A stretch of 64,000 nucleotides of DNA from a virus, in IMG/VR virus record IMGVR_UViG_3300045988_174698. One strand, written 5' to 3'. Both the position numbers and the translations under genes were made by a program. Of the stretch, positions 1 through 58,595 are shown one piece after another. The notes under the pieces were generated by a model. The model did no database searches and was not told where the DNA came from. It was given only the letters and a program-made list of their open reading frames with translations. Position 1 is the first letter of the stretch. Each line of letters starts with the position of its first letter.

Positions 1-313
1 AGCCTTATATAAATTCAAAGCTAGAGGTTTTACCATTTCCTCTAGAGCAGTAATAGTATCAATCGTTATGTACTTATAAGGCTTCCCTGCATCGATAATT
101 GCTTTACAGACCTCTTTAATTTCTTTAACTGTATTTACTTTAATCTTAAGTGCATCGATGTAATCAGTTCCTGACTCACAATCGATAATTAGATTGTTAT
201 CAAGAGTTGAAAGAGTTGTAGTCTTCCCGCACTTTGGCAATCCATAGAGAATCAAGTACTTAGGGTCTTGTGTAGATGCTGGAATTTTACTTTTTGGTAA
301 TTCAATAGCCATA
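1..313 (-). CDS. RecA-fold ATPase, Sak4-like; C-terminus runs off the window
   Basis: Minus-strand ATG at 311-313. N-terminus MAIELPKSKI...LILYGLPKCGKTTTLSTL has a Walker A (GxxxxGKT) followed by ...IIDCESG, the pattern of phage Sak4/AAA ATPases. Confidence 0.45.
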
Positions 314-395
314 TTTAAAAACTAAATTTATTTTTATTTCTGATATCTTTTACTTCTGTATCTTTTACAGTTGCATCTTTTATTTCTTTTTCTCT

Positions 396-1271
396 TCATG
401 AAAGATAATCTTCATAATTTATTTCATCAGATTTAGGTAAAGGATAGAACATACCAATACTACCTTTGAAAGCAGACATGATAATTCTATTAGAAATACC
501 ATATCTATTTTTAAGAATAATAATAGATCTACAAATATCTTGTAAACCATATCCTTCGTTATCATCCATTATTTTATATCCTCTATAACTTTTTAGTTGG
601 GTTTTAAATGGACTAAATAATGCAATACAAATATCAGCAGCTTGTAATGGTTCACCTGACTGTTGAATTTCATCCGCAGTAGGCTCTTCCATACCAGCTT
701 TTCTCCTATCCATAGTTGTACTATTTCTATTTTCTTGCATTATAATATCAAAACTAGTCTGACATAGTTCTCTAAATCTGACACAATAAGTTGATATAAG
801 ATCCATTTCTTCTTTTTTAGTTCTCCCTTTTTGAGGATTTACTAAAAGTAAATGATCAATAACAACATTAACTATTTGATTAGGATTATTTGGGGTATAT
901 ATAGTTCTTTTTCCATCAGGACTTTTTTGAAAGGTTCCTAAACTTTTGTGGAGTTCCATCATTTCTGCATAAAAAGAATCTGCAGAGAGCTGTTTATCAT
1001 ATATAATAAACTTATGACTTATAGATTCTAATCACTCACGAGCTTCAATTACATACTTATGTATATCATCTGGTAACTTATTAGTAAATGACATTAATTG
1101 CATATATGTAACTTCAATACCATAAGTTTCATATAAATATAAGCTTAATAATTTCGCCAACAATGTATTAGCACTTAGTTCAAGAGAAAAATAAACTATA
1201 ATTATATCTTTATCTGGATAATCTTTTAAAATACGATATATATCTGTATATATAACAAAAGAGCTTTTCAA
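396..1271 (-). CDS. DnaB-family replicative helicase, C-terminal part (second segment of a split gene)
   Basis: ORFs 396..962 and 1032..1271 join in-frame through one TGA (..EAREW LESIS..). DnaB motifs present: IIIVYFSLELS (H1a), SGEPLQAADICIALF (H4, like SGxIEQDADxV) and ILKNRYG. The track's start is a TTG; the Walker A lies in the separate ORF at 2663..2860. Confidence 0.6.
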
Positions 1272-1708
1272 TTTGTTATCTTACTTGCTTTTTATCAAGT
1301 AATTCTTATAGTTTCCTATAAGTTCAGCATATATTTTCATCTCTTTGAGATGTCGGATACTCTTGGGAAAATTATATTCTGTATAACAGGTTCATTTCCT
1401 ATGCGTTACAATATAAAATAACTGTTAAATTACTTTATTATCTCGGGGTTAACATGCTTATATACAAAATTTGGATAATTATTCTGTACATATAGTTTAG
1501 CCTTCTCCGATATTACCCGATCATTATCTCTAAAATCACTTTTAGAGACGGCAAAATTATGATTTTTAAAACACAAATATCTATAATATTTCCTATTTAA
1601 ATAAATTGTAGAATTTTCATAAATTCACTGTAAAAATTTAATACTATTATTTATATTACTTTTTATATCAAATATTAGATCACTTGTTTTATTTGCAACA
1701 TATCATGT

Positions 1709-2122
1709 TCATGAAGTATTTGAATATACTTCTATATTTTGTAAAATATTTTTAGTTCCAACAATACAACATCTTGGTTTAAAAATATTTTTACTACCTC
1801 CATAAGATAAACATCCATCACCATCAAAATATCCTCTAATAAAATGTCTTATTAAATCTTTAGATTTAAAAATATTTTCATCAGGAAATTTTAAGACATA
1901 ACTTTTATTTGGAACACATCCTTTTTCTATTAGAGCATCTTTAATATGTTTACAAGAAATAGCAAATCTACATCGTTGCAATTTATTATCAGTTCTTGGT
2001 AATCTGAAAATATTTAAGGCACTATATAATTTTTCTAGATGTTCAATATCATCAATATGTAAATCACATGAGATATGGTAAGAATTTGTAGAAACATTAC
2101 CATCAGCATATAAAAATCCCAA
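1709..2122 (-). CDS. LAGLIDADG homing endonuclease (double-motif)
   Basis: Two LAGLIDADG-type motifs, GFLYADGNV and GYFDGDGCLS, with the spacing of a single-chain LAGLIDADG enzyme. The apparent start is TTG. The gene sits between the two DnaB helicase segments. Confidence 0.75.
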   Translation of the reverse strand: MGFLYADGNVSTNSYHISCDLHIDDIEHLEKLYSALNIFRLPRTDNKLQRCRFAISCKHIKDALIEKGCVPNKSYVLKFPDENIFKSKDLIRHFIRGYFDGDGCLSYGGSKNIFKPRCCIVGTKNILQNIEVYSNTS

Positions 2123-2195
2123 TCAATATGCTTTTGTTTCTGTGTCTATTACATCAAAAAATGATTCATTTACTGTTTTACGATTTAGGTTGAAA

Positions 2196-2621
2196 TTATG
2201 TTTTTTTTAGAAACTTTGAAATAACACAACCTTGAGTATTATATAATTTACCTATTTCTTTCAGAGACATACCGTTATTAAAACAATCAATCATATTTTT
2301 TAAATCATTTAATTTAAACGTATATGATATCCTATTACTTTTATGTGATAAATAAATTCCGCATCGTTTAAATAAATTACCTAATGCAGCAGATGTACAA
2401 TTGCACAATTTAGAAACAGATTTAAGTGATATTTCAGGATTTTCATGAAATTTACATAAGGCTTCTTTAACTTTTACATCATTTACTTTATGTTTTCTAA
2501 CATTCTTAAAATAAAAATCTAAAAGAATTAAATCTACAGCTTGTTTTGAAATATTTAATTTGTTGGATATTTCAAATGAATTTAAATTTTGTTTTCTTAG
2601 TTCTATTATTTTGTTTATCAT
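2196..2621 (-). CDS. HTH DNA-binding protein (NUMOD/sigma-r4-like), probably the DNA-binding module of the endonuclease cassette
   Basis: Two helix-turn-helix-like segments (ISNKLNISKQAVDLIL; SLKEIGKLYNTQGCVISKFLKK). Offset by +1 from the LAGLIDADG ORF, across an A8/T8 run at 2201-2210. Confidence 0.4.
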   Translation of the reverse strand: MINKIIELRKQNLNSFEISNKLNISKQAVDLILLDFYFKNVRKHKVNDVKVKEALCKFHENPEISLKSVSKLCNCTSAALGNLFKRCGIYLSHKSNRISYTFKLNDLKNMIDCFNNGMSLKEIGKLYNTQGCVISKFLKKT

Positions 2622-2662
2622 AGTAAAAATTATTTTAATTTTTACTACAAAAATAACGCAAT

Positions 2663-2860
2663 TTATTTATATTTACAAATATCTGCGTTGGAAATTATTA
2701 ATGTTTTACCAACACTACTTTTGCTGAATATTAACTTATATACACCCTTTTTAAATCCTCCAGTATAAAAATCCAATTTTAAAAGTCCTGTTTTAAGACC
2801 TATATTTTTACCTTCTCGCCCGTCTTCTATTTTAGAATATAATTCACCTACCAAACTCAT
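2663..2860 (-). CDS. DnaB-family helicase segment with Walker A (first segment of the split gene)
   Basis: GLKTGLLKLDFYTGGFKKGVYKLIFSKSSVGKTLI matches the DnaB linker-to-Walker-A region (GLxTGfxxLD...GKT). Ends at a TAA 13 residues after GKT. The FSLEM motif that should follow is 1.4 kb downstream in 396..1271. Confidence 0.55.
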   Translation of the reverse strand: MSLVGELYSKIEDGREGKNIGLKTGLLKLDFYTGGFKKGVYKLIFSKSSVGKTLIISNADICKYK

Positions 2861-3437
2861 TAAGCAGTTGTATAAACATCATAAGTACTGGTCTTACCTT
2901 GTATTCCCTTTATTTTCATTTCTTCAAATTCGTTTCACTTACAAGAAGCAACAAATTCAATAATAGGAATATGAATAAGATCGTTCATCTTAGCTCATTC
3001 TAATATTTCTAATACTTCTCGATGTTTACTTATACTATGTCCAATAGTTGATGCGTATCAAAAATAAAATTCTTGTAGGTCTCTAAATTTCTTAGAAATA
3101 TTCTTTAAACTTACAATCTTACCATTTAGATACAACGTTGTTGGATATGCATCCATTAACTCTTGTCCTAGTTCTCCAGTTAATTTGAAATACTGTTTAA
3201 TAAAGTTTTGATTAAACTCTATTTCATCAGGATCATAACAATTAGGATTATAATTTTTCTTAATAATACCTTTATCTTTGAGAGAATTAAATAAACTTTT
3301 TAATCGTTTATTACCACCGCCGTCATATCATTTTTTGAAATAAATACGATGCTCTTCGGGATTTCCATTCTCCGTTTGTGCAATAAAAGTTAAATATATT
3401 AACAAAACTTCATCAGCTGTTAACTGATATTTAGTCA
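2858..3437 (-). CDS. hypothetical protein (replication module), TGA-containing
   Basis: Hand translation MTKYQLTADEVLLIYLTF...KKWYDGGGNKRL... continues through several TGAs to a TAA that overlaps the ATG of 2663..2860 (TAATG). No motif recognised. Confidence 0.35.
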
Positions 3438-3513
3438 TAATATTTAAAATCGTATCTAACTTCATATAATACGATTAAAAGTAAACATAACGTATTACGT
3501 TAGATCTTTTAAA

Positions 3514-4740
3514 TTAAAATCTATGCTCTATATCTATTATGCCTTTTTTGGGTCTAGTAGAAATTTCACCACCTTTTAATATAACATCTAACTGATCCTC
3601 AGTAATAGTTATATAAGATTGATTTTTATTAGCATTATTATACCAAGTTTCTTCTATAGAACCTGCAATCACTAATGTAAAAAACTCTGCAACTTTATTT
3701 TCTTCAGCTCTGATCACACGGCCAATACGTTGTAAATCAGTCACTTGAGAAGAATTACAAGTTAAAGCTATACCTACAGATAATCCTCTAACATCGACAC
3801 CAGCATCTAAAGCTTTAGGAGAAACAATATTAGCAATATCTAATTGATTAAATGTTTCAAGAATTATCCTATTCTCCTTTTTCTTTTTCTGACTATGCAA
3901 TACTAAAGCTCTGGATTTAAATAGCTCTGCATCTTTTACAGTAGCAGTAAACAATATACATTTCTTGTCTCGTCTAAAGTCTAGAATTTTATTTGCAACT
4001 TCAAACTTTTTAGGATGAGTCATGACAAAAGTTTTTCTTAGCTTTAAGTATTTCATAAACTGAGCTAAGTAACCTCTTGTAGCATTATCACTTTTCCCAT
4101 ATTTTTGGGCCCAAATTTTCACTTTTTTGGGTGATTTGACTAGCTCCATCACCAGTTTAAAATCGTGATTAAAATAAGCAAATAATTGTTGGAATTTAGC
4201 ATTATACTCTCAATATTTCTCCATATCAACATGTAGAAGAACTTTATATTTTCTGTATGAAGATACTCAGTTATTTTCTAATGCTTCTTGTAATGTAATT
4301 GTATCACAAACGGACATAAACTGTTCAAGATATTTTTCACTTCCGTCTAGACGAGTTCAGGTTGCAGTTAATCCTAAAAGATATTTATATTCTACACAGT
4401 TATAGATATTGATAAACGTTGGACTTGCAGATAAATGACATTCATCTACTACTAATAGGTCAACTTGATATTGCTGTTTAATGATAGTATTAAATATTTC
4501 TACTTTACAGATAGAAAAGAGTTGGTTTTTAGCCAACTCTCTATTTCACTGTTCTTTCAAAACATCTGTTGGAACAGCAACTAATACTACGATGTTAGGA
4601 TTATGCTTATATAACGATTTAATAACCATTATACTACCATTTGTTTTACCTGTGCCAGTAGCCCATTCAAGTACACCTCTACCACCACTATCAATTCAGC
4701 GTCTTATACCTAATTTCTGACGTTCATCTCGGTTCATTAA
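3514..4740 (-). CDS. SF2 DEAD/DEAH-family helicase
   Basis: N-terminus MNRDERQKLGIRRWIDSGGRGVLEWATGTGKT (Walker A), VVDECH (motif II), GLTATWTRLDG (motif III, W from TGA), QRIGRVIRAEE (motif VI). ORF 3514..4152 fuses with upstream sequence through in-frame TGAs. The plus-strand ORF 4481..4720 is its antisense. Confidence 0.75.
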
Positions 4741-4773
4741 AGATACAAAAAATTGATTAGATATAAAAATAAG

Positions 4774-5619
4774 CTACTCTTTACTTGTCTTTTCGAATAT
4801 TGGTAATGAAATATTTCTTGCTTCAGCCACTCGTTGAATATTAGACATTAAAGTATTCCACTTATTTATATGATAATTTAAATCATTATCTAGTAATAAT
4901 AATATTTTATCTCTTAATGTCTTTAGTGCTATAGTTGACAATGATGTTATCTTAGGTAAAGAGGTAAGCTGAACTAATGAACGAAATTCAGAAAAAGATA
5001 ATCCTGTTGGACTAACTCGAAGTTTAATATCAGGATTCAAACATAATCTTTCCTTAATTACTTCCATTCTGTTACGTACTCTACCATTACTATCGACTTC
5101 AGTTAACTCAACTTTTTCATTATCCGTTAACCAGATTCCCTGTGCTAAAATAAACTTATCAGTAATCATTTTCTTATTTAAAATATCAAGTTTATCAAAA
5201 CAAGCATCCATGAGACGACTAACAGTTACCTTTTCAAAAATAGGCTCAAGTCCGTTAAATAGAACTGAAATAGATTCATTAAGTATATCCTCTTCATGGG
5301 AGGATCTTTGACTATTTATATAGTCAAGAATATCTTTCTTTGTTTTTATATCAGTGTCGCAGTCATGTAAAAGATATCTTACAAATAACTCTGTATTACA
5401 AGCATCCCATGTTTTATGAATATTTTCTCGAACGACATATTTGCCAGGGGACCATGGATATGCATTGTATAACATCTCATAACAGTGCTTATATCATTTC
5501 CTAATATCCTCTTCAGGAGCTGTCATAAGTTTTACATCGTTACCACTTTTATCTTTCCACGTTAATGATTCAATAGAATCCATTGCATTTTGCAATTTTT
5601 CACCAAATTCTGTACACAT
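4774..5619 (-). CDS. hypothetical protein
   Basis: ORF 4774..5475 extended upstream through a TGA to ATG at 5617-5619 (MCTEFGEKLQ...RKWYKHCYEMLYNAYPW...). Frame rechecked. Confidence 0.35.
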
Positions 5620-5620
5620 A

Positions 5621-5971
5621 CTATTCAAAATCAAATTTGTCTTGTTTACATATATCTTTTTGTTTAAAGAAATTTATAAAATAATTATTACTATAATTAT
5701 AAACTTCAAAATCTTTTAAATTTTTGTTAAACCATTGAGTAATACCACCTTCTACATATTGAAATTGTAAATAACCAATATCACCAACTTCAAATGTGTC
5801 AGCAGTATCCCAGTTTGGAAGTCTAACTATTGTAACATATTTTAAATCGTCTGTTATATTACGATTTAGGTCTTCAACAACTATTTCAGTATATTGTCCT
5901 TCTTGAATAACTAAGACTTTACAATATATTGTTACTGCTTGAGGGGTCATAATATCTACAGGTTTCTCCAA
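5621..5971 (-). CDS. hypothetical protein
   Basis: 116-aa ORF that overlaps the 3' end of the phosphatase gene in another frame. Confidence 0.25.
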   Translation of the reverse strand: MEKPVDIMTPQAVTIYCKVLVIQEGQYTEIVVEDLNRNITDDLKYVTIVRLPNWDTADTFEVGDIGYLQFQYVEGGITQWFNKNLKDFEVYNYSNNYFINFFKQKDICKQDKFDFE

Positions 5972-6725
5972 TGTTAAGTAATCGAAAACAGATATTATCT
6001 ACAATTTGAGTATTGCTTTGATGGAAATGTCCGTAATACCAATTAGTAATATCATCTTTATAATCATTATAGACCATATCCATAACAGCTCTCTCCTCTT
6101 CTATATCCTTTAATAATTCATTATCGTATTGAGAGTATTCTTGTACAATACTCCCCTTATCTGTTGGAAAACAGAATGAAGGAGCTGTATGAGAACAGAT
6201 AATATCTATTTTCGCGTCAACTTTAGGTCGATATTGAACAATCTCATCTTCCCAATACGTCTTAGGAGCATTTAGTTCTGCTGTTTTATAGTCACAATTG
6301 TGGTATTTCATATATCTAACTATATTAATAGAATCATTTTGCTTCCTAATAATTCTATCTACAGATGTAGCTCCTCCAATACAAAGAATATTAAGATTAC
6401 AAGTATTTATTATAGTATAGTCAGGAACACACTTAACATAATTAGTATTAATAAGTTGATTATTGTAATACTTTGGGTTACTGTGATTTCCTCTAATCCA
6501 AATAAATATATCATTAAACTTTTTTAATACTTTATGTAATTCAGGAATTACATGATCTGTATAATGTTTCAACCGCTCAAATCCTATTCCCACATCTCCG
6601 CAGAAAATAAATACTGAATTTTTTATTTTATATTGTCGAATGTTATGTATAACTGAATTCCATTCTCCATGTACATCTCCAACTATGTAGAGGTCTTTAA
6701 TTGTATCAGGAAGATTAATTGTCAT
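5919..6725 (-). CDS. calcineurin-like metallophosphoesterase (PP-lambda-like Ser/Thr phosphatase)
   Basis: YIVGDVHGE, FCGDVGIGFER and IRGNHS match the DxH(x)nGDxxDRG(x)nGNH(D/E) metallophosphatase signature. Confidence 0.7.
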   Translation of the reverse strand: MTINLPDTIKDLYIVGDVHGEWNSVIHNIRQYKIKNSVFIFCGDVGIGFERLKHYTDHVIPELHKVLKKFNDIFIWIRGNHSNPKYYNNQLINTNYVKCVPDYTIINTCNLNILCIGGATSVDRIIRKQNDSINIVRYMKYHNCDYKTAELNAPKTYWEDEIVQYRPKVDAKIDIICSHTAPSFCFPTDKGSIVQEYSQYDNELLKDIEEERAVMDMVYNDYKDDITNWYYGHFHQSNTQIVDNICFRLLNIGETCRYYDPSSSNNIL

Positions 6726-6731
6726 AACTTT

Positions 6732-7100
6732 TTATATTTTAAACCCTCCGATTGGAAGGGAATAAATATTATATATTTTGTTGTTAATCTCTATATAATA
6801 TCTATAAGAGTTAAAGATATTAATACAATAAAAGAAATCATTCTTATACTTAATATCACTAAGATAAAAACCTGATTCCTCAGGATTACTAAGGAGGTTT
6901 ATATCAAATTTTAGAAGATATGGTGGCAAGATATTCACATTACTAACTCTAAAGACTATTTTTAGTCCAAAACTAGAGTTGAATTTAGTTTTTGGTACAT
7001 ATGCTAAAACCCCCATTCCAATATTTAAACAGGCTTTAATATAATTAGGATCGTTTCTGTAGACAATTATGTTATGCTGTTCGAGCTCCAGTATAGACAT
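6732..7100 (-). CDS. hypothetical protein
   Basis: 122-aa ORF with an ATG at 7098-7100. Confidence 0.3.
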   Translation of the reverse strand: MSILELEQHNIIVYRNDPNYIKACLNIGMGVLAYVPKTKFNSSFGLKIVFRVSNVNILPPYLLKFDINLLSNPEESGFYLSDIKYKNDFFYCINIFNSYRYYIEINNKIYNIYSLPIGGFKI

Positions 7101-7333
7101 ATTAGTCTATGTCCCCCTTATAGGCATTCATAATAGATTTTTCCTTTCTAAGCCAAGAGCCCTCAGTTTCTGCTATATCTAGAACAGTACGGCTAATAGA
7201 TTCTTCTTCTCAATTTTGTTATCGTATAGCTTTTTATCTATACTTCTTATACTTCATTTTGTATAAGCTCAGCATATATTTTCACCTTCAGCATTATCTG
7301 TTAAGGGTAAATCACTCGTGGGTTTATTTTATT

Positions 7334-8089
7334 CTAATCTGTTATTAATATTTTATAATTGTATATAGCGTTGTATACCTGTTTTGGAAGTATATTTTTA
7401 TATTTGTTAGCATATTCCTTTAAACAAGTTTCTTTCTCTTTCTTATATGCTCTAAATGCTTCTTCAATTGTAGAAAAAGTTCCTATATGTTTTTTCTTAT
7501 TCATATAATTAATTTGAGCAATTATTTTATTGTTTTTGATTCTGACTCCTATTGGAGTATTACCTCTACATTGAAATCTTCAAGTAATAGCAGTATTAAT
7601 TTCCTTTGGGATAAAACAACAATAATTTGGAGAATAAATTTTATTCCCCTTTACCAAGAAATCTTTATCTATAACAAATGATTCGTTATAACAATTATTA
7701 TAATATCAATCCGCAAAATTCTGAAAATTTAATCATTCTTTACAAACAGTAACTCCATTTCCTCCATAGTTATTATATTCAGAAACTTTTGGACAATAAC
7801 ATCTTCCAATCATTTCTTTCCAAATTTTATAACATCGAGTTTGTTTACCGTTTTTGTCCCTAGAACTATATTGACCTACTCCAAAATAACCTGTATTGTA
7901 TACAGACGGATAATAAGGATCTTTAACAGAGCCCTTTTTTAGATTACCTAGTTCAGCAGTAATAATAGTACCTGTTTGTAAAAATTTTATTATTACATTA
8001 TATGAATCAATATATTCTAGAATGATAAAATCTCCAGAACTATTTGAAGTCATAATTTTATTTTCATAAATTTGTTTGTTATTTGTCAT
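7334..8089 (-). CDS. HNH-family homing endonuclease with a C-terminal AP2 DNA-binding domain
   Basis: ORF 7733..8089 continues through two TGAs to a TAG at 7334-7336 (frame checked). VIDKDFLVKGNKIYSPNYCCFIPKEIN is HNH_3-like. IGVRIKNNKIIAQINYMNKKKHIGTFSTIEEAFRAYKK is an AP2-type fold typical of phage homing endonucleases. Confidence 0.6.
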
Positions 8090-8264
8090 ATATCATAATA
8101 TTTTAATTAAACATAGTACAAATATACAAATTCTTTTTCAGACTCACAAACAAATTAGGTTCAAAACCTATGCGTTACACTGACTTAATATATTACTATT
8201 AAGTTTAGCACGGTATTAGCATCTCAGCCTTCACCGTTTTTGATTTATTCTATTCTACTTATTT

Positions 8265-8753
8265 CTAAGCAGACAGGCAGAATTCTACCTGCTCGTTCAC
8301 TAACATTCCTGTCTCTTTATCATGCCCGTTCAACCAGTTGAAAGTAGCCCAATCACCCTCATTAGCTGCCTGATCAACAATTTCATTAATCATTTGAGTA
8401 GTTTCAATTTCAAGATCTACGGTAATCTTAAAAGGATCTACCATATCTTCTACTTTCTTATCAAACTGCTCAATAGTAGGATAAATATACTCTGCATCGT
8501 TTTCATTTAAATATTTACGAATCCAGGAATGATGTAAGTATTCTTCATCTGCTCTTTGTTTGTAATACTCTTCAAGAATAACAAATCCTCTAACACCAAA
8601 GTAATTTGCAAAATTCATATACGCATTATGATTTTGCAATTCATGCTTAAGCTGACGAAGAAGTAGTTTTTGAATTTCAGCACTTAAAGTGCATTCACGC
8701 CTACTAACATCCTTTTTTTCTACAGGATCATTTGCCTCATTTTTAATTATCAT
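8265..8753 (-). CDS. ferritin-like (non-haem ferritin/FtnA-type) protein
   Basis: QRADEEYLHHSWIRKYL and INEIVDQAANEGDWATFNWLNGHDKETGMLVNEQVEF align with FtnA ([48 protein letters not shown]). Length of 162 aa fits a ferritin monomer. Confidence 0.6.
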   Translation of the reverse strand: MIIKNEANDPVEKKDVSRRECTLSAEIQKLLLRQLKHELQNHNAYMNFANYFGVRGFVILEEYYKQRADEEYLHHSWIRKYLNENDAEYIYPTIEQFDKKVEDMVDPFKITVDLEIETTQMINEIVDQAANEGDWATFNWLNGHDKETGMLVNEQVEFCLSA

Positions 8754-8790
8754 AAATTAGGTAATTTAAAGTATAAAACATTTCTGCTAT

Positions 8791-9153
8791 CTAGTAAATA
8801 TGGATCCTATAACTCTCCTTATGAAAGTTAAAGTTAAATTGATTTTCTAATAACCAGTAAATATCAGAATATATTGTGAATTCATGATTATTAATTACAA
8901 ATCTAAGATAAAAACTATCATAAGTAGTTAAATACCTAGTAATATCTTGTTCATTAAAATAGATAATATTTATACCCTCAAGTTCAATACCTAGATTCTC
9001 AAACTCTACTGTAAGTTCTTCACTTCCACAAACATCAATGATAGATAAGTACCTGTCAGTTTTTTTGTCAAATCCATCAATATACCCTCTCATGTGATTA
9101 ACACAAGGATACCAATGATTACCAACTCTTTTCAAAGTTAATTTCTTTTCCAT
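8791..9153 (-). CDS. hypothetical protein
   Basis: 120-aa ORF; its start overlaps the RNase H stop. Confidence 0.3.
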   Translation of the reverse strand: MEKKLTLKRVGNHWYPCVNHMRGYIDGFDKKTDRYLSIIDVCGSEELTVEFENLGIELEGINIIYFNEQDITRYLTTYDSFYLRFVINNHEFTIYSDIYWLLENQFNFNFHKESYRIHIY

Positions 9154-29824: not shown

Positions 29825-29842
29825 AAGTTAAAAAGATTTTTG

Positions 29843-29875
29843 TGTGGCTGATGAGAATTGAACTCATGTCCATTC
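29843..29875 (-). other. isolated tRNA 3'-end-like fragment (T-arm plus acceptor 3' strand)
   Basis: The minus strand reads ATGAG-TTCAATT-CTCAT followed by CAGCCAC. No upstream D-arm or anticodon arm, and the flank is AT-rich. Confidence 0.25.
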
Positions 29876-30580
29876 AACTATTAATAATAATTTTATTTAC
29901 ATGCTAGGTTATTTTATTCTCCTATTCCGAAAAATAACAAAACGTATCAGATAGTTTTTATCTTATCTCCTACAACTTATCTGAAATAACTCGGTTCTAT
30001 AATAGTAGTTAGTAATGATTAACTTACATCATCTGCATTAATCTATACAGAAAATCTTTGTCTATTATTTCTCCAGACTTGGATAGCTTAAGCTGCAAAA
30101 GCTACTTGAGCACGCATAGGAGTTGCAAGAGGCATAACCTTGTTAGCCATCTTACGTACAGTGTTCTTAGCGTTTATTTTTTGGTCCAGTTGTTAAAGAA
30201 GTTATACCAGCTCCTGCATGAATTGTTATCAACTATCTTGAATGTCAAAAACCTGGCAGGCCCAAAGACAGGGCAGTTTATACTTATACCCTAGAAGTGG
30301 TCCATAATAGCTAAAGTGTTTAATGCTCTAATTATATAGCAGCGACTAGTATACTGTTATACTTTTCTTGTAACTTCAAGAACTATTACTAAAACTTCAA
30401 TGTGAAGTTCCTAAAAGCCACTTGAGTATTTTTTGGGTTCACTCAAGAATACCGTGTTTTATTGTCGGGATCAAACAACCAAACTACCACCTTTCTATAT
30501 ACAAAGGCAAACTCATACTATCTGGCGTAACCCGTTACTATTATTTATATACCGCTAAGTAACCTAATGCGGTTTACTTT

Positions 30581-42660: not shown

Positions 42661-42789
42661 TCTAATTGACAGGATTCGAACCTGCAGATGTTTTGATTAA
42701 CACCACATATTGTTTCAATACAGCCAAATTAGTTTTCATTTGACGAAGGGATATTAGTCCCTAGCGTATACCAATTCCGCCACAATTAA
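42661..42789 (-). ncRNA. atypical 129-nt tRNA-like RNA
   Basis: The ends pair as an acceptor stem (TTAATTG / CAATTAG, six Watson-Crick pairs plus one G-U). 3' T-arm GCAGG-TTCGAAT-CCTGT. 5' D-arm-like GCG...CGC. Anticodon-like hairpin AGGGA-CTAATA-TCCCT (6-nt loop, or 8-nt if the closing pair opens). These flank a roughly 60-nt insertion before the T-arm. Confidence 0.3.
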
Positions 42790-42925
42790 ACAAACTTATC
42801 TTTAACTTTAAAATGAAGGAGTGGGTGACTGTCACTCTAACAGTTACTAATACTAGTATAATGGCCTAGCAGCTCAGTGCCACAGTCTTCCGACACATTA
42901 GTAATGTATTTTTACTTCATCTTGC

Positions 42926-43028
42926 AGGTGTAACGGGATTCGAACCAGACATACGATTCCCTCAAGAGTTCTCTCTTAGCGTATCTCCGAAGTTGCCACC
43001 TCGGTGTTTTACCATTAAACTATACACC
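42926..43028 (-). ncRNA. atypical 103-nt tRNA-like element
   Basis: Acceptor GGTGTAT / TTACACC (6 bp). D-arm GTTT-AATGGTA-AAAC. Anticodon-like stem CCGAG/TTCGG with an 8-nt loop GTGGCAAC. A roughly 40-nt hairpin insertion (ATACG...AAGAG-AGAA-CTCTT...CGTAT) sits before a weak TTCGAAT T-arm. Confidence 0.25.
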
Positions 43029-43072
43029 TAAAACAAGTTGCAAATATAGCACTTAATTATTGAATATGCAAA

Positions 43073-57902: not shown

Positions 57903-58595
57903 ATGGCAAAAACAAAACCTGATATAGATTCTGGACTTTCATGACTAGAAAGAATCCTACAATTATGTAAAGAGTATGGAGTATTTAATATTTTGAAGGG
58001 GTTATTTATTCTAATTATGTTAAGTTTAACACTTAGGATTTGTTACAATCCTAGTTTTTTATTTGACAAATATACTGACTACATGACTCAAAGACATGCG
58101 AAAGAGTTACATAAAAGGACAGAATATGATCAACAAATAAAAAGTCTCCTGCCTGTATATTTATATAAATATCATGCAGATAGGATATGAATTATTCAGT
58201 ACCATAATGGTATTATGGACTGACAACATGGAACTATGAGATTTGAATTATGTAATGATGAAGTTGAATCAATTAAAAATCAATATAATGATTTTAATCT
58301 AACCTGGATTAATCTTCCTTATTATTTAAAGACGAACGAAGTATTTATAGGGGATATGGTTAAATTAGATAGTATTGATTCAACTCTTTATACACAACTC
58401 AAAAAAAATAATGTACAATATTTAGCCTGTACAATTATAAAAGATAATAGTGGTTATCCAATTGGTATTTTAGGAGTGACTTGGAAAAATATTCCACCAA
58501 ATATTGATAGATTACAAAATAAAATACATAACTATCTTATAGATGATAGAGCAGATATTAAAACTCTTATCCAATCTAATTATAATAAAGAATAA
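57903..58595 (+). CDS. hypothetical membrane-anchored protein
   Basis: 230 codons with three TGAs; fuses track ORFs 57993..58190 and 58236..58595 (all in frame 0). Transmembrane helix LFILIMLSLTLRICY. Confidence 0.35.

Follow-up and report, generated by a model that had tools for sequence, protein, structure and literature searches.

The classical phage introns of subgroup IA with homing endonucleases are those in td, nrdB and nrdD of T4 and in the DNA polymerase genes of the Bacillus phages SPO1 and Bastille; their intronic open reading frames (ORFs) lie in the loops of P6 or P8. Such an intron may lose its endonuclease gene and keep the ribozyme intact, which is a normal stage of the homing cycle. 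The self-splicing introns of Staphylococcus phage Twort are published, and for one of them, the orf142-I2 ribozyme, there is a crystal structure (references 22 and 115 in the review PMC3984707). Furthermore, in Agate phages, which are recoded for TGA, an endonuclease of a group I intron inserted in an early gene prefers TGA (Borges et al., bioRxiv 10.1101/2021.08.26.457843). Here, a stretch of 64,000 nucleotides (nt) of viral DNA (IMG/VR record IMGVR_UViG_3300045988_174698; "the window") was analyzed, in which two loci share conserved non-coding blocks and each carry an endonuclease gene. Judging from their sequences, both loci are very probably mobile group I introns that belong to the same widespread family in phages, a subgroup IA type related to the Twort introns: intron A interrupts a DnaB-type helicase gene (locus 1) and intron B a ferritin gene (locus 2). 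The two are further members of a well-known kind of element, an ordinary selfish element of phages, the intron family itself being unannotated in databases.

Two split genes and a shared, predicted ribozyme core

The shared blocks had been pointed out in an earlier note on this DNA. Block 1 (TATAAGYTCAGCATATATTTTCAYCT) was found again by a scan of the window exactly where it had been placed (1317-1342 and 7262-7287, 24 of 26 positions identical). Block 2 (AGGTTCANNNCCTATGCGTTACA) occupies 1388-1410, as noted, and 8157-8179, the start of the latter having been put one base too low, at 8156. Identity between the copies is 88-92% for both blocks. At up to three mismatches, no further copy of block 1 was found in the 64 kilobases (kb) of the window (expected number 0, 100 shuffles) and none of block 2 (shuffle expectation also 0). 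A covariance model of the 3′ domain (R1; 148 positions) scored 146 bits at intron A and 58 bits at the other locus, and detected no third locus in the 64 kb, the next best score being 13 bits (E about 0.8). This 13-bit candidate lies at 58102-58209 on the plus strand and is probably a chance match. Since the R1 matches are confined to the two loci, the possibility raised in the earlier note that the blocks are a general promoter or terminator is excluded. Read on the minus strand, block 2 is UGUAAC-GCAUA-GG... and block 1 is ...AAAAUA-UAUGC-UGA; the helix P7 is made up of the complementary pentamers contained in them, GCAUA and UAUGC. Block 2 comprises J6/7, the 5′ strand of P7 and the beginning of P7.1; block 1 extends from the end of P8 through J8/7 and the 3′ strand of P7 to the beginning of P9. 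The shared blocks are, thus, the most conserved part of the ribozyme, both P7 strands with the adjoining junctions. The difference between TTT and AAA in block 2 falls into the stem of P7.1 and is compensated by the respective partners (TTTC at 1367-1370 versus AAAC at 7322-7325).

Locus 2 had previously been taken to lie between two complete genes, a view that had to be given up because the frame stopping at 8265 is ferritin exon 1 running into the intron. The corresponding "ferritin-like" ORF of 162 amino acids (aa) departs from ferritins after ...ATFNWLN...VNEQ, and a different frame, downstream of the HNH gene, encodes EEESISRTVLDIAETEG... When U8287 is joined to A7210, a protein of 191 aa with a Pfam Ferritin match results, which aligns with solved ferritins free of gaps over the junction (query VNEQVEEESISRTVLD; 1z4a VDEQVEEEDQVREILD). 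About 50 of 65 related IMG/VR loci contain an intron-less ferritin gene, each of exactly 191 codons, and the sequence of these alleles at the site, ...CA(A/G)GT^(A/T)GA(A/G)GA... (^ denotes the junction), is that of the predicted ligated exons. At least 11 of the related ferritin loci contain an intron of 1076-1099 nt at the same codon, and three others a 257-nt intron without ORF, again at the same codon; the insertion falls within the conserved EQxEEE helix of ferritin. The fact that the true C-terminus of ferritin (35 codons) is encoded at 7210..7105 excludes the fallback explanations of the earlier note, namely that the intron lies in an untranslated region, that the endonuclease is free-standing and has a promoter/terminator cassette, or that the locus is a relic; the relic was counted as excluded on this ground, and an element that no longer splices is retained below as an improbable rival.

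At locus 1, the joined helicase exons yield a single continuous DnaB_C match (Pfam), and the spliced protein is colinear over the junction with that of the intron-less relative L075 (...SGSAKSSYVIYTD...), which reads SAKSSYVIYTD where the helicase of the window reads VGKSSFVIYTD. Reading through from exon 1 into the intron would produce a "GKT", but the first codon of the intron is AGA, not AAA, in the relative L072, which indicates that this read-through motif is not under protein selection. The final bases of intron A (GAUAACAAAUUG) resemble those of intron B (GAUAACAAAAUUG). Both introns conform to the boundary rules of group I: they follow a U, end in a G, and contain guides that pair with both exons.

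The structure of the core was derived from a MAFFT alignment of 32 non-redundant cores, including both introns of the window; in intron B, a tetraloop was substituted for the HNH region. Unguided, RNAalifold returned P3, P4, P5, P6, P7.1, P8, P9 and P9.1, with compensatory double changes in 34 of 45 pairs. When P7 was added as a pseudoknot across P3 to complete the structure, 96.6% of the cells were paired over the 32 members, compared with 74% in shuffles and 32-43% when the partners were slid; changes on both sides occur in 36 of 54 pairs, the covariation score is 0.576 versus 0.150, and 0 of 500 shuffles reached any of these measures. The conserved secondary structure that the earlier note had asked for is, thus, strongly supported by covariation. 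P7 does not vary among the 32 members because they were chosen by the block 1 pattern; it is GCGUA/UACGC in L062 and L067, two ferritin introns found through the protein, and GACUA/UAGUC in the Twort introns. P7.1 directly follows P7, and its four variable pairs all covary (GGAAA/UUUCC, GGUUU/AAACC, GGAGC/GCUCC and GAGAU/AUCUC). The additional helix that separates P7 from the 3′ strand of P3 marks the introns as members of subgroup IA (IA1, IA2 or IA3); in most members, the P7.1 region forms one composite hairpin, not two. A GNRA-capped P2 is located 3-11 nt before P3 and after a ...UUU-G-CC... guide in 24 of 32 members, and across the variants of the ferritin intron this P2 covaries as well (CUGCUUA/UAAGUAG, UUGUUUA/UAAACAA, CUGCAUA/UAUGCAG and CUAUAUA/UAUAUAG). 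The ending ...UAACAnnn(U)G is found in 30 of 32 members, the remaining two (L083 and L183) being shortened by the end-finding pattern. A fold of intron A drawn by hand, with ATTTCC/GGAAAT as P3 and AACGCA/TGCGTT as P4, was dropped because the relatives show that the stem after P7 is P7.1 and place the true 3′ strand of P3 after CACGAGUG.

When R1 was applied to the 131-kb genome of Twort, it gave four matches only (E 3e-6 to 5e-3), all of them at published introns, namely those of orf142 and those in the gaps that separate the fragments of ribonucleotide reductase. The analysis, thus, shows where the insertions begin and end, their presence/absence polymorphism, the restored proteins, the covarying RNA structure, the homology to proven ribozymes and the families of the endonucleases, and we infer splicing, endonuclease activity and homing of the introns in the window. 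The guide sequence would hold both exons by base pairing, the end of exon 1 (U.G wobble at the splice site) as well as the beginning of exon 2. Attack by a free guanosine would take place after U2708 or U8287, and the freed exon 1 would then attack after the terminal G (1269 or 7211) and thereby be joined to exon 2, which would restore the reading frames of helicase and ferritin. With the endonuclease genes residing in peripheral loops, the core would be left undisturbed. The endonucleases, by analogy to known systems, would cut intron-less alleles in co-infecting relatives, the repair of which would copy the intron in.

Endonuclease genes, intron family and genome context

The earlier note correctly described the arrangement of the blocks, both of them 3′ of the LAGLIDADG ORF at locus 1 and one on either side of the HNH ORF (7334..8089) at locus 2. 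Its leading idea, that the two are related group I intron cores in which the endonuclease ORF sits at different internal places, holds at both loci: the ORF occupies the loop of P1 at locus 1 and the loop of P7.1 at locus 2. The LAGLIDADG gene matches Pfam LAGLIDADG_3 (5e-6) and, in its intact relative, the endonuclease family phrog_4645 (1e-53); in relatives it is a single intact ORF of 396 aa. Over its last ∼125 nt, the gene runs through the guide sequence, P2, P3, P4, P5 and P4′. The second ORF had been labeled HNH-AP2, of which the first half stands (phrog_953 HNH endonuclease, 4e-57) and AP2 is unconfirmed, Pfam giving no family for this ORF even at E ≤ 10. The inner hairpin of P7.1 contains the stop codon of this ORF, UAG, in its 3′ strand. 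The ORF-less intron of L062 has a GAAA-capped stem of three base pairs where intron B holds the HNH ORF, and homologous HNH ORFs are present in the same P7.1 loop in L024, L034 and L067.

In L024 (IMGVR_UViG_3300045988_163797), the ferritin is 97% identical in protein to that encoded at 7102-8753 of the window and its gene contains an intron variant of 1099 nt. The nucleotide identity between the two is 94.9% in exon 1 (86.7% in its last 60 nt), 71-75% in the intron and 83.8% in exon 2. The concentration of the exon divergence beside the intron suggests that the intron was replaced by recombination.

The family extends far beyond these loci. By megablast, the 3′ part of locus 1 gave short matches of 86-97% identity in unrelated phages, one of which, in Bajarodcaudo virus 2, is a compact copy without ORF. 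An exact-pattern scan retrieved at least 114 copies in viral contigs; among the matches listed, the block 2 motif is located upstream in 109 of 114, at a distance of 21-114 nt in 102 and of 595-896 nt, with an ORF in between, in seven. The family core matches 70 deposited phage genomes, among them phages of Bacillus, Staphylococcus, Clostridium/Clostridioides and Streptococcus as well as crAss-like phages. In the 60 records listed of these 70, the label "intron" never occurs, the notes being "none," "terminator," "hypothetical protein" and the like. Examples of unannotated cores are KJ804259.1 11717-11870, MT596499.1 72721-72874, PQ358086.1 22279-22412 and NC_055895.1 99994-100121; features that cover homologous cores are named "terminator," "terminase large subunit" or "tail length tape measure protein." In bacterial genomes, 20 exact matches were obtained among 185,579 species representatives, mostly in contigs of metagenome bins.

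The window has a G+C content of 30.6%, and the genes of this region are on the minus strand. When TGA is read as sense, the ORFs of at least 100 aa increase in summed length from 12,743 to 19,054 residues, and fragments are joined into recognizable full-length proteins (e.g., 396..1271, 3514..4773 and 7334..8089), which indicates a TGA-recoded, phage-like genome (TGA = Trp). In the long minus-strand ORFs, 57 of 132 Trp codons are TGA, compared with seven of eight in the two endonuclease genes (Fisher p = 0.02). An array of 12-14 tRNA genes (23642-43685) and a gene for transfer-messenger RNA (29842-30263; Rfam 52 bits) are present on the minus strand. No tRNA with a UCA anticodon, as expected for a TGA suppressor, was among the ARAGORN predictions in the window. 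Two tRNA-like sequences on the minus strand (42661-42789 and 42925-43029) scored 33-35 bits and contain abnormally long inserts, of about 57 and 32 nt, in the region of the variable arm; ARAGORN called neither of them. A megablast search of positions 1-9000 against the phage collection gave short, intron-derived matches only. An ORF of 204 aa (2860-3474, minus strand) without Pfam match has its end overlapping the start of the helicase (2860..2893 region) and may encode a separate N-terminal helicase-associated protein. The positions of the features of both loci are compiled in Table 1.

Table 1. Predicted features of introns A and B and of their host genes (^ denotes an exon junction).
Feature	Position	Strand	Description
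Intron A	1269..2707	minus	Predicted group I intron, 1439 nt; follows U2708, last base G1269
Helicase exon 1	2708..2860	minus	ATG 2860 to GGU 2708; ends ...SKSSVG, within Walker A
Helicase exon 2	315..1268	minus	Starts AAAAGC (KSSFVIYTD...), contains FSLELS motif; stop 315-317
Helicase ligated junction			Predicted: GUUGGU^AAAAGC
LAGLIDADG homing endonuclease gene	1430..2621	minus	P1 loop of intron A (1151 nt); N-terminal helix-turn-helix region
Intron A internal guide sequence and P2	1526..1556	minus	Layout as in intron B and 24/32 family members
Intron A P10	1556-1553 / 1268-1265	minus	UUUU with exon 2 AAAA; four pairs
Intron A P1	1552-1549 / 2708-2711	minus	G1552.U2708; CC 1551-1550 / GG 2710-2709; G1549 possible wobble with U2711
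Intron A P2	1548-1527	minus	UCUCUAAAA-GUGA-UUUUAGAGA
Intron A catalytic core	1269..1520	minus	P3 1520-1514/1359-1353; P4 1510-1505/1448-1443; P5 1502-1500/1453-1451; P6 1442-1432/1419-1410; P7 1404-1400/1331-1327; P7.1 1399-1395/1370-1366
Intron A 3′ part		minus	P8 1352-1348/1342-1338; P9 1322-1316/1311-1305; P9.1 1302-1296/1287-1281; terminal G 1269
Intron B	7211..8286	minus	Predicted group I intron, 1076 nt; follows U8287, last base G7211
Ferritin exon 1	8287..8753	minus	467 nt; ends ...VNEQ + GU of Val156
Ferritin exon 2	7102..7210	minus	A + EEESISRTVLDIAETEGSWLRKEKSIMNAYKGDID + stop TAA 7104-7102; final 35 codons at 7210..7105
Ferritin ligated junction			Predicted: CAGGU^AGAAGAAG
Spliced exon junctions, the two genes			Predicted: GAGCAGGU^AGAAGAAGAAUC and GUGUUGGU^AAAAGCUCUUUU
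Intron B P1/P10/P2 region	8254..8291	minus	Read from sequence
Intron B P1	8291-8287 / 8278-8274	minus	Exon CAGGU with GCCUG; U8287.G8278 wobble
Intron B P10	8282-8279 / 7210-7207	minus	UUCU with exon 2 AGAA
Intron B P2	8273-8254	minus	UCUGCUUA-GAAA-UAAGUAGA; GAAA-capped
Intron B core, 5′ part	8164..8247	minus	P3 5′ strand 8247-8241; P4 8237-8232/8215-8210; P5 8229-8227/8220-8218; P6 8209-8199/8188-8179; P7 5′ strand 8173-8169; P7.1 5′ strand 8168-8164
P7.1 inner hairpin	7334..8158	minus	CUAAUUUGU 8158-8150 / ACAGAUUAG 7342-7334
HNH endonuclease gene	7334..8089	minus	251 aa, three in-frame TGA; loop of P7.1 inner hairpin, intron B
Intron B core, 3′ part	7211..7325	minus	P7.1 3′ strand 7325-7321; conserved CACGAGUG; P3 3′ strand 7314-7308; P8 7307-7303/7287-7283; J8/7; P7 3′ strand 7276-7272
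Intron B 3′ end		minus	P9 7267-7261/7252-7246; P9.1 7243-7238/7229-7224; terminal G 7211

Weighing the alternatives

Several observations weigh against two functional introns. With the Rfam model Intron_gpI (RF00028), no match was obtained in the window, whether at the gathering score or permissively (E ≤ 10), or in the related loci L001-L003 at E ≤ 1. The same model detects the three orf142 introns of Twort (64-101 bits) and not those of the window, and at the gathering score it also misses two Twort nrdE introns that R1 finds (L192 7533-7621 and 9590-9734); its silence, thus, reflects its coverage. Only one intron-less helicase allele was found, that of the distant L075 (53% identity). Intron A has a short P1 (three to four pairs, two of them wobbles), and CCAACGC at 2691-2685, 17 nt into the intron, pairs better with GUGUUGG of the exon (2715-2709). 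This proximal pairing sets a U opposite the splice-site U2708 and competes with the canonical guide sequence; CCAAC as the guide, which implies U.U at the 5′ splice site of intron A, was superseded by the family-typical guide at 1556-1549 and is wrong or at best secondary. In addition, the LAGLIDADG gene is frameshifted at a run of eight A at 2201-2208 (seven in four related contigs) and falls into pieces of 141 and 258 aa; the extra A may reflect true decay of this gene or an error of sequencing. Finally, the higher similarity of exon 2 than of exon 1 in L062-64 and L067, from which co-conversion had been inferred, proved uninformative because intron-less alleles show the same asymmetry, so that the comparison with L024 is the only hint of mosaicism around the intron. 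The frameshifted endonuclease gene, the weak P1 with its competing pairing, and the missing Rfam match would also suit group I-derived relics that no longer splice, in which case helicase and ferritin would be split or dead in this phage. This is improbable, given that all core helices are intact in both introns and obey the covariation of the family, that both exon pairs retain open frames and conserved motifs, and that near-identical introns with intact exons are found in at least five to six independent contigs. Moreover, a replicative helicase is unlikely to be dispensable, and loss of the endonuclease with an intact ribozyme fits the homing cycle.

The proximity of the loci, which are 6 kb apart in one genome, and the identity of their blocks would be compatible with recent ectopic transposition within this genome, without a wider family being involved. 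Yet, the cores of introns A and B are only 63% identical, whereas each is 78% identical to an intron of another phage (A to L160, B to L062), which makes them two members of a family and not the result of a recent duplication. The endonuclease genes are unrelated and located in different loops, and the blocks recur almost unchanged in over 100 unrelated viral contigs, so that ectopic transposition is highly improbable. The least probable explanation, close to negligible, is that the endonuclease genes are free-standing and share a promoter/terminator cassette, or that the element is an intein or a group II intron. Phage endonuclease genes are indeed often free-standing, and the GenBank record CP011970.1 calls a homologous region "terminator." However, the precise absence of the element from intron-less alleles restores the host frame, which was counted as refuting all three, and the blocks of the supposed cassette occur at these two loci only in the 64 kb. 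The frames of exon 1 meet stop codons 11 and 7 codons into the element (after ISNADICKYK and EFCLSA, respectively), so that protein splicing is impossible; the endonuclease ORFs have start codons of their own. Pfam, PHROG and Rfam searches of the loci and the window revealed neither a reverse transcriptase gene nor a group II match.

Group I introns being the preferred explanation for both loci, the alternative 5′ pairings of intron A may be considered together with a hairpin of 15 base pairs (2650-2618) that encloses the start codon of the LAGLIDADG gene (z = −4.65 for a region of 113 nt). Conceivably, these could constitute a switch through which splicing of the helicase mRNA is coupled to the TGA-rich endonuclease gene, at the level of either transcription or translation. 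Splicing and homing would then be timed by the change of genetic code in the phage; this idea is speculative and unlikely to be correct.

Significance and comparison with known introns

To gene callers, the ferritin of this phage appears as a truncated, seemingly complete ORF of 162 aa and the helicase as two or three fragments, and recognizing both introns restores the two proteins. A dedicated covariance model would mend many split phage genes, such as those for terminases, tape-measure proteins and helicases. The practical value is, thus, mainly one of annotation. Of modest interest are the insertion sites (Walker A and the EQxEEE helix of ferritin), the fact that one family has its endonuclease genes in two different places, and the richness of these genes in TGA in a recoded phage.

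With the Agate phages, the phage of the window shares that it is a gut phage, the approximate size (roughly 100-175 kb) and the use of TGA for Trp, a likeness that is not an assignment to Agate; in both, the endonuclease genes prefer TGA over TGG for Trp. The RNA, the two host genes and the wider intron family are not described in the Agate paper (Borges et al., bioRxiv 10.1101/2021.08.26.457843). In comparison with the introns of T4, SPO1 and Bastille, the likeness, which is one of description, consists in a group I ribozyme with an endonuclease ORF in a peripheral loop, in insertion into highly conserved codons of DNA-metabolism genes, and in presence/absence polymorphism among related phages. 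Unlike the P6 and P8 sites of those introns, the ORFs in the window are located in the P1 loop, running into P2-P5, and in the P7.1 loop.

From the Twort introns, those of the window differ in P7, which is GCAUA/UAUGC rather than GACUA/UAGUC, a compensated difference; in detection by RF00028, which is limited to the orf142 introns of Twort; and in their host genes (ferritin and DnaB-type helicase) and host phage (30% GC, TGA = Trp). Otherwise, the Twort introns and the family found here agree in the architecture of the 3′ domain and in much of its sequence: GUAAC precedes P7, J8/7 contains AUAUA, CUGAAC stands at the P7 3′ strand, the hairpin of P9 is closed by a loop of the GAAA type, P9.1 is present, and the 3′ end is (G)UAACAnnnUUG. 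Both reside in protein-coding genes of phages, often together with HNH or other endonuclease genes.

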